A stretch of DNA of 52,553 nt from an uncultured Gammaproteobacteria bacterium (GTDB taxonomy: Bacteria; Patescibacteriota; Microgenomatia; Levybacterales; UBA12049), in contig CAZWMJ010000005.1 in assembly GCA_964635045.1 (NCBI GenBank), positions 1 through 52,553 on the forward strand, in the 5' to 3' direction. Of the stretch, positions 7,187-30,087 are shown piece by piece (position 1 is the first letter of the stretch; each line of letters opens with the position of its first letter). Made by a program: the position numbers and the translations under genes. The notes under the pieces are model-generated. The model was not told the DNA's origin, did no database searches, and saw nothing but the letters and a program-made list of their open reading frames with translations.

Positions 7187-8673
7187 ACAATCTTTTGCAG
7201 TCCGTCAAGATAAGCCTTGACCGATGCCACCACAATATCGGTATCGGCGCCAAAACCAAAATAAATGTTGTTTTTATAATTAAGCTGAATATGCACCTTG
7301 CCGATGTCGTCGCTGCCCCCAGTTATGGCCTGCACCAAATACTCTTCCAACAAAACTTTTTTGTTGACAATTTTGTTAACCGCGTTAAAAGAAGCATCAA
7401 CAGGGCCGTTTCCCGAGGCCTTGGCAGTTTTTTCCACTCCCTTAATTTTAAGCCTTATTTCTGCCGACGGCTTTGTTTTGGTACCGGAAGAGACATTAAG
7501 CGACACAAGAGCCAGACCGGTTTCAGCACCCTTTTGGCCCATCAGCACGTGTAGATCATCGTCATTAATATCCTTTTTTTTGTCGGCAAATTCCAGGAAT
7601 TTTTGATACAGACTGTCAAGTTTTTCCTGTGAGATTTCGTAGCCCAGTCTTTCCAAGTGATGGCGCAGAGCCGATCTTCCGGAACGGGCTGTTAAAACAA
7701 GTTGCGACTGAGTAATTCCCACATCCTGCGGGTTGATAATTTCGTAGTTTAGTCTATTTTTCAAAACCCCGTTTTGGTGAATACCGGAGGAGTGGGCAAA
7801 GGCGTTTCGCCCGACGATGGCCTTATTGGCCTGAACAGGCATGCGCATAAGACGGGATACAAGGCGGGAAGTTCGGGCAATTTTTTCGGTATTGATATTG
7901 GTTTTACTAGCAAGATCCTGACGAGTTTTGATAATCATTACCACTTCCTCTAACGCGGTGTTTCCCGCCCGCTCTCCCAAACCATTGACAGTTACTTCTA
8001 TTTGCGTGGCGCCATTGATAACAGAAATGATAGTATTGGCAGTGGCCAGGCCCAAATCGTTATGGCAATGAACAGAAACGATTACTTTGTCAATTCCTTT
8101 GACATTTTCAAATAAGTATTTTATTTTTGCTCCAAATTCATCCGGCAGGCAGTAGCCGGTGGTGTCGGGAATATTTACAGTGGTGGCTCCGGCTTTGATT
8201 GCTTCTTCAATAAAGCGGGCTAAAAAGGCGTTTTCCGTTCGTCCGGCGTCCATGGCGGAAAATTCCACATCGTGGGCAAATTTTTTGGCGTATTTTATTG
8301 CGTCAATGCCCTGCTGAAGAATTTTTTCTCTCGTTGAACGAAACTGATATTTAATGTGTACGTCGGAACTGCTGATAAAAGTGTGAATTCTTTTATTTTT
8401 GGCTTTTTCCAGTGAAGATGCCGCCGCGTCAATATCCTCTTTAATGGCTCGGGCAAGGGCGCAGATAACCGGCCGTCTGACTGTTTTTGAAACTTCAATA
8501 ATAGATTTGAGATCTCCCGGGCTGGAAATGGGAAACCCTGCCTCAATAATATCAACGCCTAAATCGTCCAAAGCTTGCGCCACCTCAATTTTTTCAATGG
8601 TATTTAATTGACAGCCCGGCACCTGCTCCCCGTCTCTAAGTGTAGTATCAAAAACAAAAATCTGCCGTTTCAT
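7183..8673 (-). CDS. leuA: 2-isopropylmalate synthase
   Basis: [25 protein letters not shown] and GNGPVDA motifs. Start moved to ATG 8673 (ATGA overlap with the ilvC stop); the ORF-track extension runs through repeat DNA. Confidence 0.95.
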
Positions 8674-9788
8674 TTCTTTACCTCGCCCGCCATCGCTACG
8701 CTCAGGCGTTGCGGGCGGGTCCTTTCCGGGCGAAGACCTGTACCAGACGGTACGGGTCGCAGTTCTCTCACTTTCGCTCCTGCTCTCCACATTTCTGAAT
8801 TTCTCATTTCTAAGAGTTCTTTTTCTAACCCTTTTTTGTAGTCAGGTTTACTGTTGGCTTTAATTACTACTTGCGCTTCATGTCCGTTTTTTACTTTTTG
8901 ATACAATTCCTCAAAAACCGGCTCCACCGCTTTTCTAAATTTGTGCCGCCAATCCAGCGCTCCTCTTTGAGCGGTGGTGGAACAGTTGGCGTACATCCAG
9001 TCCATGCCGTTTTCCGCAATTAATGGGATTAGGCTTTGAGTCAGTTCCTCCACCGTTTCATTAAACGCCTCGCTGGGGCTGTGTCCCATCCTTCGCAAAA
9101 TGTTGTATTGAGCTTCCATAATACCGGCCGTAGCTCCCATCAGCACTCCCCGCTCGCCGGTGAGATCGCTGAACACCTCTTTTTCAAATGTAGTTTCAAA
9201 TAGGTAACCCGATCCAATGCCAATTCCCATAGCCAAAACTTTTTCTCTCGCCTTTCCTGTGGCGTCCTGATAGAGAGCAAAACTGCTATTTATTCCCTTT
9301 CCTTCCAAAAAGAGTTTACGAACCGTTCTGCCGGAACCTTTGGGGGCTACCAGAATAACATCGACGGTTTTTGGCGGAACAATACCGGTGTGTTTTTTGT
9401 AGGTAATGCCAAAGCCATGCGAGAAATAGAGCGCCTTACCTTTTGCTAGATGCCTTTTAATAGTTGGCCAGGCTTCAATTTGTCCGGCATCGGACAGCAA
9501 ATAGGCAATAATTGTACCCCGTCCGGCCGCTTCTTCTATTTCAAAAAGCGACTTATTTGGTTTCCATCCATCAGTTACGGCTTTCTTCCAGGAGTCGCCG
9601 CCTTTTCTTTGGCCGACAATCACATTAAAGCCGTTGTCGCGCAAATTAAGAGCCTGCGCCGGTCCCTGAACGCCATAGCCGATAACAGAAATAACTTCGT
9701 TTTTAAGCGTCTGTTTGGCTTTTGAGAGAGGAAATTCACTTCTAGTTACCACTTCCTCTGCGACGTCGCCAAATTTCATTTTTGTCAT
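8670..9788 (-). CDS. ilvC: ketol-acid reductoisomerase with a repeat-derived C-terminal tail
   Basis: [21 protein letters not shown] and [12 protein letters not shown] motifs; N-terminal [10 protein letters not shown] as in Bacteroidetes/fungal-type KARI. Confidence 0.95.
8681..8720. repeat. palindromic element (CCCGCCATCGC...GCTCAGGCGTTGCGGGC family) in the ilvC 3' end
   Basis: cctcgcccgccatcgctacgctcaggcgttgcgggcgggt; both arms shared with 29281-29328. Confidence 0.8.
8735..8758. repeat. 24-bp imperfect palindrome, in frame in ilvC
   Basis: gacctgtacc-agac-ggtacgggtc (9/10 bp stem); the protein reads [12 protein letters not shown]. Confidence 0.65.
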
Positions 9789-21571: not shown

Positions 21572-21642
21572 CTGCCGGGCTTGGATTCGAACCAAAATAG
21601 ACGGATCCAAAGTCCGTCGTCCTACCATTAGACGACCCGGCA
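21572..21642 (-). tRNA. tRNA-Gln(TTG), intact
   Basis: TGCCGGG/CCCGGCA-G acceptor, GTCT-AATGGTA-GGAC, ACGGA-CTTTGGA-TCCGT. Confidence 0.95.
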
Positions 21643-21645
21643 GTT

Positions 21646-21888
21646 CTAGACACCAATCAATTTCTTAAATGCCTCTCCATGCTTATATTTCTTTATTTGT
21701 TGTTCTCTTTTAAAGGCTTCACTTTTTGTTTCAAATTCTTCTTCATAAACAATTTCAAATGGTCTATACGGCTTTGTCGATTTATTTTTACCTGCGTTAT
21801 GAGTTCTTAGTCTTTTATATTTATCCAATGTATGACTAATGTAATACCAATCATTAATCTTACTTCTTAGAATATAGGTAACATACAT
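21646..21888 (-). CDS. minimal GIY-YIG nuclease (80 aa, YhbQ/SLX1-like)
   Basis: MYVTYILRS..YYISHT..RLRTHN..STKPYRPF..EAFKREQQIK; the second motif has S instead of G. Confidence 0.9.
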   Translation of the reverse strand: MYVTYILRSKINDWYYISHTLDKYKRLRTHNAGKNKSTKPYRPFEIVYEEEFETKSEAFKREQQIKKYKHGEAFKKLIGV

Positions 21889-21892
21889 ATTT

Positions 21893-21967
21893 GATCCAAA
21901 GTCCGTTGTCTCATCGCCTTTGGCGAGACCGCGCCGAAGGCTCTGGCTACCGTTAGACGAACCGGCA
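21893..21967 (-). pseudogene. 5' half of tRNA-Gln(TTG) with the same 36-nt D-loop insertion, broken after the anticodon loop
   Basis: TGCCGGT-TC-GTCT-AACGGTAG-[21946-21911]-GAC-A-ACGGA-CTTTGGA-TC, then AAAT-ATG of the GIY-YIG gene. Confidence 0.8.
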
Positions 21968-22042
21968 ATCCTCATAATTATAGCACAGGAAGCGATTTTT
22001 TTGCGGTTGACCTTGGCTTCTAATTCAAATTATAATAATTGA

Positions 22043-23043: not shown

Positions 23044-23126
23044 GGGCGAGTGGTGGAATGGTATACACGAAGGCCTTAAGAGCCTTTGACCGCAAGGTCG
23101 TGTGGGTTCGACTCCCTCCTCGCCCA
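23044..23126 (+). tRNA. tRNA-Leu(TAA)
   Basis: GGGCGAG acceptor, AAGGC-CTTAAGA-GCCTT, long variable arm; one T-stem mismatch. Confidence 0.92.
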
Positions 23127-23127
23127 C

Positions 23128-23436
23128 ACCTGCAGAGCAGGTTTCTTAAGACTTAATGTATAAGGTTTACTTATTAAAAAGTTTAGCTAAACCTGAAAAA
23201 AGTTATGTAGGTAGAACAATTAAACCGATAGTGGAACGTTTAAAAGAACATAATTCAGGTCAAGCGAGGTCAACTAAATCTTATATACCGTGGAAGCTGA
23301 TATATTATGAACAATTTTATTGTGAATTATGTTCAGATAAAAGAGAGGTTTTTCTGAAATCGGGAAAGGGTTTTAGATTAAGAAAAATTATATTAGAAAA
23401 CCAAGAGTTATTAAGATAGTGTTCTGCTTTGCAGAA
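23128..23436 (+). mobile_element. 309-bp GIY-YIG cassette with inverted hairpin termini, between tRNA-Leu and tRNA-Pro
   Basis: Left end ACCTGC-AGA-GCAGGT; right end GTTCTGC-TTT-GCAGAA(C), where the C is +1 of tRNA-Pro. Confidence 0.75.
23156..23419 (+). CDS. minimal GIY-YIG nuclease (87 aa)
   Basis: MYKVYLLKS..SYVGRT..RLKEHN..STKSYIPWKLIYYE..KREVFLKSG. Confidence 0.92.
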   Translation: MYKVYLLKSLAKPEKSYVGRTIKPIVERLKEHNSGQARSTKSYIPWKLIYYEQFYCELCSDKREVFLKSGKGFRLRKIILENQELLR

Positions 23437-23510
23437 CGGGGAGTAGCTCAGTTGGCTAGAGCGCGCGGTTTGGGACCGTGAGGTCGGAGGTTCAAGTCCT
23501 CTCTCCCCGA
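23437..23510 (+). tRNA. tRNA-Pro(TGG)
   Basis: CGGGGAG acceptor, CGCGG-TTTGGGA-CCGTG. Confidence 0.95.
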
Positions 23511-28686: not shown

Positions 28687-28806
28687 ATTTTTATACTACA
28701 CTTTCTAACCTTGTTTTTCAATGGGTAAATTACTCCAAAATACTAACTTTCATTGATCTAGTTTGTCCTCTTGCGCCTTCGCATATTTTTTGCGTATGAT
28801 GAGAGG

Positions 28807-30087
28807 ATGAGACAGATTCTCCACCTTGACTTTGATTCATTTTTTGCCAGCGTTGAACAGCAATATAATGCTCATCTGCGCGGAAAACCAATCGGTGTTA
28901 CCGCCCAAAATGGCAGAACCTGCATTATCGCTTCCAGCCGCGAAGCAAAACTATTAGGGATTAAAACCGGCGCGCGCAGTTGGGAAGCAAAAAAGATATG
29001 TCCGGCAATCACTTTAATACCCGCTGATTTTCCCAAATATTGGGAAGTTAGCAAAAAATTTCTAGGTATTGCCAAAGACTACTCTTCTGATGTGGAACTG
29101 TTTTCCATAGATGAAGTATTCATGGATATTAGTAAAACCAGACATTTGTTTGGCGGTGTATCTGGCGTGGTTGCAAGAATAAAAAATCGGATCAGAAAAG
29201 AAATCGGCGAGTATATTACCGTGTCTGTCGGTATTTCCTATAACAAATTATTATCAAAAATGGCATCAGGACTTGCAAAACCCGCCCGCCATCGCAAGCA
29301 TGAGCTTGCTCAGGCGTTGCGGGCAGGACCAAATGGGGTGGTCGAAATTCAACCGGCAGATGTGGACAAAATTTATTCATCGGCAAAATTAACCGATGTT
29401 TGCGGTATTGGGGAACAAATAAAGACGCGGCTTAACAATATTGGGATTTATTTTCTTTGGCAATTGCGAGATACTCCCCTGCCGTTTCTTGTGACCGAGT
29501 TTGGCGCGGCGGAGGCGGCATTTTTAAAAAATATAGGATTGGCCATAGATAATTCCCCGATTATTCCTTACACACAAGCCCCGGAGGTAAAATCGGTCGG
29601 CAGAAACTACTGTCTGCCGAAAAATGAATATAACAAACAGATAATTTTACAAAATATCTATGAGCTTTGTGAGGAAGTGGCATTGAAATTAAGAAGGCTG
29701 AATAAAAAAGCCAGAACGGTGAGGGTATTTTTGAATGGTAGTCAAACTATTAGCGGGCAAAAGACCTACCAAGAGGCTTATGATAGCGGCCAAGATTTCT
29801 TCAGATTAATTAAACGTCAATTTAGTTTGAATGAAAAAGACTATGTCCGACAAATCAGTATTGGCGTTTCCAATTTGGAAGATGCAAACATAGGACAAAT
29901 TTCTCTTTTTGATTCTGTAAAGAGGAATAGGCGTTTATTATCTGCAGTTGACGCCATTAACGAACGCTTTGGCCACCATACCATCCGCAATGGTTTTTTA
30001 TTATACGCAGATAAGCTGACTACCGTCCCTAACGGCTATATGGCGGATAAATACGAACGCGCCAAACTGGCCCGGACTGCGCGATAG
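28807..30087 (+). CDS. dinB: DNA polymerase IV (Y family) with a 16-aa in-frame insertion
   Basis: HLDFDSFFASVEQ, SREAK, FSIDEVFMD and SVGISYNKLLSK motifs; start moved to ATG 28807. Confidence 0.93.
   Translation: MRQILHLDFDSFFASVEQQYNAHLRGKPIGVTAQNGRTCIIASSREAKLLGIKTGARSWEAKKICPAITLIPADFPKYWEVSKKFLGIAKDYSSDVELFSIDEVFMDISKTRHLFGGVSGVVARIKNRIRKEIGEYITVSVGISYNKLLSKMASGLAKPARHRKHELAQALRAGPNGVVEIQPADVDKIYSSAKLTDVCGIGEQIKTRLNNIGIYFLWQLRDTPLPFLVTEFGAAEAAFLKNIGLAIDNSPIIPYTQAPEVKSVGRNYCLPKNEYNKQIILQNIYELCEEVALKLRRLNKKARTVRVFLNGSQTISGQKTYQEAYDSGQDFFRLIKRQFSLNEKDYVRQISIGVSNLEDANIGQISLFDSVKRNRRLLSAVDAINERFGHHTIRNGFLLYADKLTTVPNGYMADKYERAKLARTAR
29281..29328. repeat. 48-bp palindromic insertion in dinB
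   Basis: cccgcccgccatcgcaagcatgagcttgctcaggcgttgcgggcagga encodes PARHRKHELAQALRAG inside the KPNG motif. Confidence 0.85.

Follow-up and report, generated by a model that had tools for sequence, protein, structure and literature searches.

The stretch of DNA analysed here (the window) covers positions 1 to 52,553 of contig CAZWMJ010000005.1, 52,553 nucleotides (nt) from a Patescibacteria genome of 923 kb and 41% GC, Levybacteria-like to judge by its best DinB matches. Its dinB gene, for the Y-family DNA polymerase IV, contains 48 nt of GC-rich palindrome that split the KPNG active-site motif. What is this element, how did it come to lie beside a catalytic lysine, and can the polymerase accommodate it? 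The explanation that we regard as probable is that a mobile hairpin repeat of the candidate phyla radiation (CPR; Patescibacteria) has inserted in dinB repeatedly and is translated and tolerated there. The features of the gene are as follows.

28771..30087, plus strand: dinB open reading frame (ORF), Y-family DNA polymerase IV (Pfam IMS, 8.1e-44; IMS_C, 2.2e-14)
29275..29280, plus strand: codons of Ala169 (GCA), the substitution that accompanies the insert, and of Lys170 (AAA), the KPNG catalytic lysine
29281..29328, plus strand: 48-nt insertion, an in-frame copy of the hairpin repeat that reads as PARHRKHELAQALRAG
29281-29290 and 29314-29327, plus strand: outer arms of the insert, CCCGCCCGCC and GCGTTGCGGGCAGG
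29294-29309, plus strand: inner hairpin of the insert, GCAAGC-ATGA-GCTTGC

A hairpin repeat splits the KPNG motif of DinB

Both the catalytic core (IMS) and the little-finger domain (IMS_C) were found, which places the product among DinB proteins. Translation probably begins at an ATG some 12 codons into the ORF (MRQILHLDFD...), as in homologues. Read directly, the insert (CCCGCCCGCCATCGCAAGCATGAGCTTGCTCAGGCGTTGCGGGCAGGA) is an imperfect palindrome. It is codon-aligned, in the context GGA CTT GCA AAA / CCC GCC ... GCA GGA / CCA AAT GGG, and separates the Lys codon (AAA) from the Pro codon (CCA) of KPNG, placing PARHRKHELAQALRAG between LAK and PNG. In Y-family polymerases the lysine of this motif (K159 in Dpo4) contacts the dNTP triphosphate. 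The insert folds as a nested hairpin on both strands, more stably on the minus strand (-33.6 kcal/mol, z = -3.1) than on the sense strand (-27.8 kcal/mol, z = -1.9). A first-pass annotation, made from the letters of the window, had described a 48-nt in-frame insert at this point with a GCAAGC-ATGA-GCTTGC centre, and the sequence, the ORF and its Pfam domains bear out that description.

Insertion has recurred at one site among DinB homologues

Among 120 DinB homologues, 111 had an uninterrupted K-P-N/D-G motif and nine carried an insert at exactly this site. The empty allele that the first-pass annotation proposed to look for among orthologs is thus the rule, and its counter-proposal, an equivalent loop in all of them, clearly fails. 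Judged from the DNA of each locus, eight of the nine filled alleles contain the same element; L027 holds a different GC palindrome. Six copies have the orientation seen in the window (L001, L021, L022, L023, L024 and L026) and two are inverted (L215, and L025 inside a filled clade). The inserts measure 48, 45, 45, 42, 36, 36 and 36 nt, with two further cases that replace the Pro-Asn codons. All lengths are multiples of three, partly by ascertainment, a protein search having been the source of the alleles, and all nine inserts, together with the ilvC insert described below, are in frame and free of stop codons. At least three subfamilies are represented, the inner parts belonging to different subfamilies that each also occur elsewhere in other genomes. 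There are three junction types, two of which replace Pro-Asn, and the insert position is identical in six alleles (AAA/CC...).

In a DinB tree, built with eight filled rows before allele P0057 was recognised as filled, the filled rows fell into four separate groups; none of 500 label shuffles clustered as tightly. P0057 belongs to a further well-supported clade and is about 80% identical to its empty neighbours. The filled allele P0023 and the empty allele P0119 are 91% identical in nucleotide sequence and are separated by a single clean 45-nt indel, TTAAATAA[ACCCGCC...GGGCATG]GCCAAAC, without target duplication. We conclude from these comparisons that at least five lineages are filled and that the site is a hot spot of recurrent insertion, with at least five gains within about 10 nt. 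Since the inserts show two orientations, several subfamilies and three junction types, separate gains are indicated and an ancestral loop followed by dozens of precise losses is ruled out. The ancestral loop is also contradicted by the empty DinB alleles, none of which retains Ala169.

Comparison of element flanks gave no insertion-target motif beyond a bias towards sites just after A-rich runs that end in A. A local hairpin (GGnCTT..AAGCC) at some empty DinB sites was weak (-2 to -6 kcal/mol) and unconvincing. When metagenomes were scanned with the DinB junctions, only three DinB matches were obtained, all near-copies of alleles already known.

As a separate observation, DinB matches came in two pieces in eight relatives (G001, G003, G005, G013, G016, G019, G025 and G037). 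The break lies near query residue 346-350 in seven and near residue 125 in G025, a pattern that points to a frameshift, or to a further interruption that recurs, in the little-finger region.

The DNA arms are conserved rather than the peptide

The arms (8 + 11 nt) were 100% identical in all 15 pairs of the six forward DinB copies, while in the same pairs 126 nt of flanking coding DNA were 67% identical and third codon positions 45%. This result is not circular, because the alleles were found by protein similarity. The right arm of L026 is read in another frame, giving SVAGR instead of ALRAG. More generally, the encoded insert peptides vary among DinB alleles, one being RLPAGRQ, and frames and orientations differ. 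What is conserved in these alignments is accordingly the arms as DNA and not the peptide. A DNA repeat adding a peptide beside the active-site lysine, as the first-pass annotation had it, agrees with the presence of the same element in many unrelated places and genomes and with the preponderance of empty DinB sites.

The polymerase appears to tolerate the insert

Across 60 aligned homologues D20, D22, D114, E115 and K170 were invariant and P187 and G189 nearly so, although the motif is split by 16 residues in the window protein. The ratio of nonsynonymous to synonymous substitution rates (dN/dS) was 0.12 for the window dinB versus L021 (dS = 1.0), 0.06-0.09 in three other pairs with both alleles filled and 0.11 in the filled/empty pair; dS was 1-2.4 across the both-filled pairs. 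Therefore, the insert-bearing genes have long been under purifying selection. An AlphaFold2 model made with the 60-sequence alignment had a mean predicted local distance difference test score (pLDDT) of 85, and above 90 in the core, with block means of 57-61 for the insert (residues 171-186) and values below 50 at residues 178-182. The best Foldseek matches of the model were Dpo4/DinB ternary complexes, with target-normalised template modelling (TM) scores of 0.84-0.86. The model shows the insert as a predicted floppy loop on an intact Y-family fold. The first-pass annotation had suggested such a model and had left the insert as either tolerated or inactivating; the predicted fold with its low-confidence loop, the low dN/dS and the invariant catalytic residues favour the former.

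The residue preceding the catalytic lysine was Ala in eight of nine filled alleles and in none of the 111 empty ones, which mostly have Lys or Asn and in a few cases others (Fisher P = 1e-9, computed before P0057 was counted as filled). At position 169, the empty alleles closest to each filled group carry Asn, Lys, Gln or Asp. The sole filled allele without Ala, P0023, is the youngest insertion and keeps the Asn codon of its empty sister. The Ala-Lys codons vary (GCA AAA, GCC AAA in L027, GCA AAG in L215), and this variety indicates an effect at the protein level. We infer that insertion probably came first and that a convergent compensatory (or permissive) change to Ala followed. This convergent change, the recurrent hot spot and the link to mini GIY-YIG genes set out below were all unforeseen in the first-pass annotation.

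A family of hairpin repeats in Patescibacteria

Copies of the repeat measure 31-57 nt and have in common the invariant arms CCCGCCCGCC...GCGTTGCGGGCRGG, between which the inner stem-loop varies. The strict family pattern, CGCCCGCC-N8-38-GCGTTGCGGGC, matched in 21 of 401 evenly sampled Patescibacteria genomes (about 5%), 19 of these matches looking on inspection like true elements; a reversed control pattern gave no matches. Strict copies numbered up to 21 per genome. With a looser arm pattern, genome G076 gave 100 strand-wise matches at about 65 places, including more than 25 identical copies of one 37-mer. The same genome contains nested composites, with a hairpin inside the loop of another (for example C6:3751-3807, C7:13522-13578, C14:42695-42751 and C16:38263-38319). 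As the composite occurs in at least six copies, hairpin loops serve as insertion targets and composites can multiply.

Element flanks are AT-rich, often with an A before the CC of the element, and both orientations occur. No target-site duplication was seen in the filled/empty pair or in the other flanks inspected. We considered a classical miniature inverted-repeat element (MITE) of a DDE transposon, with terminal inverted repeats and a target-site duplication, and rejected it on the clean 45-nt indel without duplication.

A 36-mer, CCCGCCCGCCTCGCAAGCGAGAGCGTTGCGGGCAGG, was identical in metagenome-assembled genomes (MAGs) labelled Saccharibacteria and Desulfobacteraceae, in one unlabelled MAG (L136) and in DinB allele L026, and its 31-nt core was also present in Levybacteria and Zambryskibacteria MAGs. 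An arm-pattern scan of genome contigs is informative only for low-GC matches, as chance matches dominate high-GC genomes; among the matches listed, a few low-GC ones were in MAGs labelled Desulfobacteraceae or Gammaproteobacteria (labels as given). An IMG/VR scan gave no element-like match among low-GC viral contigs, and a search of a paper library found no description of these CPR repeats.

Of the 29 distinct copies at the CPR loci fetched, six are buried well within long ORFs. The host ORFs encode an RluD-type pseudouridine synthase, a class-I tRNA synthetase core, a tRNA synthetase anticodon-binding domain, a GT4 glycosyltransferase, a FemAB protein (Pfam assignments) and DinB. In a Saccharibacteria MAG (L037:320-353) the 36-mer lies in frame (LPATLSLARRAG) right before a G/FSLVELM prepilin cleavage motif, and thus inside the leader peptide of a type IV pilin-like ORF. 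In genome G359 (for example C3:75162-75216 and C6:161723-161779) the inner loop of the window subfamily is enlarged by 15-20 nt of AT-rich, copy-specific sequence; from these copies, the inner loop seems able to carry cargo.

In the best-sampled subfamily (23 copies) the inner stem was 85% paired and the whole structure 92%, compared with 26-45% in slid controls. By inspection, the inner stems of different subfamilies differ in sequence yet stay hairpins (CTCG/CGAG, CCCG/CGGG, TTCG/CGAA and TTTG/CAAA around CAAG). The hairpin is supported by this pairing and by the differing stems, not by covariation statistics. At the gathering score, Rfam 15 returned only tRNAs from the window, and only tRNAs and one rRNA end from 20 element loci. 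A scan by E-value gave a sub-threshold match to COG2827 RNA (15.5 bits, E = 2.3) that was not reproduced on other copies.

A second copy in ilvC and other hairpins of the genome

The window holds a second copy of the repeat, in ilvC, and an unrelated palindrome close to it.

8681..8719, minus strand: second repeat copy, inverted relative to its host gene ilvC
8735..8758, minus strand: unrelated palindrome in the ilvC tail, GACCCGTACC-GTCT-GGTACAGGTC, core GTACC-GTCT-GGTAC, translated VPSGTG

The first-pass annotation had matched the arms of the dinB insert to an element in the ilvC region, and the two copies are indeed identical at CGCCCGCCATCGC and GCTCAGGCGTTGCGGGC; the ilvC centre is CGC-TAC-GC. 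The 17-mer right arm had two matches in the window at up to three mismatches, against 0.04 expected, and two matches were found in none of 100 shuffles. The dinB and ilvC copies are the only close copies in the whole genome. The ilvC copy is not intergenic. It lies within a 45-nt in-frame insertion of 15 residues, read as (R)[13 residues](V), three codons ahead of the ilvC stop. IlvC has 372 residues, with the KARI_C domain ending at 345, and the IlvC of relatives terminates in ...LRPE(K/R/N)QK*, where the window protein has an altered tail instead. The ilvC stop and the leuA start overlap (ATGA at 8670-8673).

On either side of the palindrome at 8735-8758 stands a Leu-Arg-Pro codon triplet (CTGCGACCC and CTTCGCCCG); the two triplets form an imperfect 9-nt duplication and look like the target duplication of another small element. 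Other GC-rich hairpin families occur in the same genome (G000), for example AATGTCAAGCCCCGCC-TTT-GGCGGGGCGCAGACCC twice and GCCCCGC-TNA-GCGGGGCTTCG in several copies (positions C3:23072, C4:7992, C6:33450, C14:106, C31:2415 and C10:21719).

Small GIY-YIG nuclease genes, tRNA cassettes and Y1 transposases

In three copy-rich genomes, five of 23 small GIY-YIG genes had an element at most 62 nt upstream of the start codon, compared with 0.09 expected (P = 4e-8), and L168 provides a further case. GIY-YIG matches averaged 7.4 per element-bearing genome and 3.4 in the others (Mann-Whitney P = 1e-7); the genome-level statistics, here and for the Y1 transposases below, ignore phylogenetic non-independence. 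The mini GIY-YIG proteins have a single domain of 75-87 residues. Their best sequence match in the PDB is UPF0213 protein EF2693 (E = 0.004), and NCBIfam gave weak matches only, to a group I intron endonuclease model.

Three loci (L160, L167 and L168) share a cassette in which a tRNA 5' stub containing the hairpin is followed by a 75-80-residue GIY-YIG ORF and then by an intact tRNA. The window contains a cassette of the same design with a different hairpin, and a second mini GIY-YIG ORF.

21572-21970, minus strand: tRNA and GIY-YIG cassette with a different hairpin
23156-23419, plus strand: second mini GIY-YIG ORF, 87 residues, between tRNA genes 23044-23126 and 23437-23510

The window cassette has a tRNA-Gln-like 5' half with a GC-rich hairpin in place of part of the D arm. 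Its GIY-YIG ORF (80 residues, 21646-21888) begins 4 nt past the anticodon-loop sequence, and the intact tRNA lies at 21572-21642. Further mini GIY-YIG genes of the genome are at C4:67538 and C2:63934. When the flanks of tRNA-associated copies were rejoined, ARAGORN found no tRNA across the join; therefore, these are stubs or decayed copies and not interrupted working tRNAs. At L157:700-1000, a tRNA-Phe-like sequence beside a normal tRNA-Phe is broken by at least four separate GC-rich hairpin insertions, located in the D loop, in the anticodon stem, after the anticodon loop and in the T arm.

Genes for Y1 transposases (Y1_Tnp; RAYT/IS200-like) were also compared with the element. Across six genomes, where strict or looser element lists cover the genome concerned, none of 24 Y1_Tnp matches had an element within 500 nt, and the nearest was about 600 nt away. 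The genome of the window encodes one RAYT-like Y1 ORF of 231 aa with HFH and RYIH motifs (C3:2089-2781, minus strand), with no GC-rich hairpin within 900 nt.

Comparison with known systems

The closest parallels come from the Ssn nucleases, single-domain GIY-YIG proteins of about 94 residues that bind hairpin repeats flanking their genes and cut single-stranded DNA beside NTS/SRM hairpins of 20-50 nt present in hundreds of copies (Chenal et al. 2025, PMC11893778). The authors of that study point to an insertion sequence (IS)-like architecture and to a parallel with repetitive extragenic palindromes (REPs) and their transposases (RAYTs); NTS repeats are rarely intragenic (2%), and Patescibacteria are not mentioned there (PMC11893778). 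The CPR elements likewise are short hairpin repeats in the 20-50-nt range with many copies per genome (up to 21 strict, and about 65 looser in G076), and they adjoin single-domain GIY-YIG genes in five of 23 cases, but not in the genome of the window. Orientation is set by the non-palindromic parts in both systems, and in both, spread via single-stranded DNA and an IS-like arrangement of repeat and gene are suspected. The SRM consensus (HGTCWY N0-2 YYVSBRH N0-5 WNVSBRG N0-2 RNCYNB), however, matched none of five representative copies on either strand and nothing in the genome of the window, although the NTS control matched. About a fifth of CPR copies are predicted to be translated inside long ORFs, as against the 2% of NTS repeats that are intragenic. 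Further, the nearest solved relatives of the CPR proteins are UPF0213 proteins (E = 0.004).

Rickettsia palindromic elements (RPEs) are about 100-150 bp long and known from Rickettsia only; they enter protein genes in frame and, once translated, add peptide at surface positions that permit it, while the host protein remains functional. The first-pass annotation had drawn this analogy, and it holds as regards an in-frame, translated palindrome in conserved proteins (DinB, IlvC, pseudouridine synthase, two class-I tRNA synthetases, GT4 glycosyltransferase and FemAB). The CPR elements differ from RPEs in size (31-57 nt), in their unrelated sequence and in their Patescibacteria hosts. We know of no RPE case of recurrent insertion at the same site of an active-site motif, or of a linked compensatory change. 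We conclude that the DinB repeat is akin to Ssn/SRM and to RPEs but is a member of neither family.

The CPR elements also resemble REPs and bacterial interspersed mosaic elements (BIMEs) with their RAYTs, and the 'peel and paste' IS200/IS605 elements, in being short, multicopy, imperfect palindromes without target duplication. Recognition of a single-stranded hairpin is likely, as for REP/RAYT, and RAYT-like genes co-occur with the CPR elements. REPs are extragenic by definition. Unlike them, the CPR elements are intragenic in about a fifth of cases, do not flank Y1 genes and are without the GTAG/GTGG head. Yeast mitochondrial GC clusters are GC-rich palindromic mobile elements of 30-50 nt, found in frame in var1 and also within other elements. 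The CPR elements share with them the GC-rich palindrome in an AT-rich genome, the in-frame position in protein genes and the nesting in elements, but GC clusters are organellar, unrelated in sequence, in some classes accompanied by short target duplications, and not known to adjoin a nuclease gene. Small GIY-YIG genes among tRNA genes recall SegB of phage T4, a free-standing GIY-YIG homing endonuclease in a tRNA cluster, but Seg proteins have a DNA-binding domain and are not known to have a hairpin repeat.

Explanations for the insert in dinB

In the explanation that we favour, a small GC-rich Patescibacteria hairpin repeat has entered between the Lys and Pro codons of KPNG without target duplication, and such insertions have occurred independently at this spot several times in Levybacteria DinB genes. 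The insert would be retained in the mRNA and translated as a flexible surface loop of 12-18 residues, survivors being only in-frame, stop-free insertions at permissive places. DinB would stay functional, aided by the convergent change of the preceding residue to Ala. As to mobility, the single-domain GIY-YIG nucleases of 75-90 residues, whose genes the repeat often directly precedes, may move it in the form of a single-stranded DNA hairpin, a proposal by analogy with Ssn that we hold to be quite possible; a RAYT-like Y1 transposase acting in trans would be an alternative mobiliser. It is also conceivable, although rather unlikely in our judgement, that an undescribed CPR system, consisting of a 75-90-residue GIY-YIG nuclease and a hairpin, pastes hairpins into single-stranded DNA without target duplication and with a real target preference, and that the solo hairpin represents its minimal, non-autonomous form. 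The Lys/Pro junction of DinB would then be a homing-like hot spot, where repeated insertion would have forced a convergent compensatory change from Lys or Asn to Ala and may tune nucleotide binding of this translesion polymerase.

Several points weigh against the favoured explanation. The mobility of the repeat is deduced from its distribution. The association of Ala169 with the insert could reflect a permissive background and not compensation, and the ascertainment of alleles by protein search contributes to the regular insert lengths. RNAalifold with pair counting on the 23 copies found one compensatory pair, which was not significant. Most repeat copies do not adjoin a nuclease gene, and the dinB copy itself is a solo hairpin. 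The genome of the window has just two copies, and none of its five small GIY-YIG genes lies beside this subfamily; with so few copies and no adjoining nuclease, these copies may be relics. Finally, Y1 transposases compete with the GIY-YIG proteins as candidate mobilisers: Y1_Tnp genes were present in all six genomes checked, and matches averaged 3.0 in element-bearing genomes and 1.2 in others (P = 1e-3).

This last point is central to an explanation that we consider unlikely, in which the element is REP-like and mobilised by RAYT/IS200-type Y1 transposases, its adjacency to GIY-YIG genes arising only from a shared gathering at tRNA clusters. Y1 enzymes are established to process hairpins in single-stranded DNA and to leave no target duplication (see also PMC11893778), Y1_Tnp was found in 14 of 19 element-bearing genomes compared with 176 of 380 others, and the RAYT-like ORF puts such an enzyme in the very genome of the window. 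Five element-bearing genomes, however, gave no Y1_Tnp match. The spacing of at least about 600 nt between Y1_Tnp matches and the elements of the lists, the lack of a GC-rich hairpin near the Y1 copy of the window's genome and the absence of a REP-typical GTAG/GTGG head also argue against it. We think it improbable that the element entered DinB once, in one lineage, and then spread between related bacteria by homologous recombination (homing-like co-conversion), so that the hot spot would stem from common descent of the insert and not from repeated insertion. That would account for the insert position shared by six alleles and for the near-perfect link with Ala169, mostly encoded by GCA, as a co-conversion tract. 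Against it stand the different subfamilies, both orientations and three junctions, two of them deleting the Pro-Asn codons; the GCC codon for Ala in L027 and the AAG codon for Lys in L215; the Asn codon that the youngest filled allele retains from its empty sister; and the flanking DNA of filled alleles, only 67% identical.

The remaining explanations concern what becomes of the gene product. An insertion that directly follows the lysine contacting the dNTP triphosphate could have inactivated or crippled DinB and set the gene on a course to loss, and the replacement of the nearly invariant Pro-Asn in two alleles and the rather long internal branches to filled clades would fit. We nevertheless regard this as very unlikely, as both-filled pairs show dN/dS of 0.06-0.12 at dS of 1-2.4, the catalytic residues are all kept, none of the ORFs is truncated and the fold is predicted to be intact. 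The hairpin might instead be removed or bypassed at the RNA level, as an intron-like or otherwise processed segment or by translational bypassing, in dinB and in tRNA-like sequences, leaving the protein unchanged. Its stability on either strand and its presence in tRNA-derived sequences, at places in the D loop where translation plays no part, speak for this. We give it hardly any credence, since the nine DinB inserts and the ilvC insert are in frame and stop-free (to which ascertainment contributes), the inserts differ in length and junction and share no boundary motif, the change at Ala169 implies that the protein feels the insert, no Rfam family matches, and the tRNA pieces that are interrupted are not working genes but stubs, with intact tRNA genes next to them.

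Implications for Patescibacteria and Y-family polymerases

The filled DinB alleles amount to a natural replicated experiment, in which at least five lineages acquired 5-18 additional residues within a conserved Y-family active-site motif that is still under purifying selection. The same neighbouring substitution in eight of nine filled alleles allows predictions on what the KPNG loop does and on how compensation evolves, and these can be tested directly. For annotation, such inserts are relevant in that they resemble lineage-specific loops. The solo hairpins are tied to the cassettes of hairpin and mini GIY-YIG gene at CPR tRNA genes and to the Ssn nucleases, which points to single-stranded DNA enzymes specific for hairpins that may form a new set. 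CPR hairpin repeats would make new protein sequence in essential genes (tRNA synthetases, pseudouridine synthase and DinB), which bears on the evolution of these tiny genomes.

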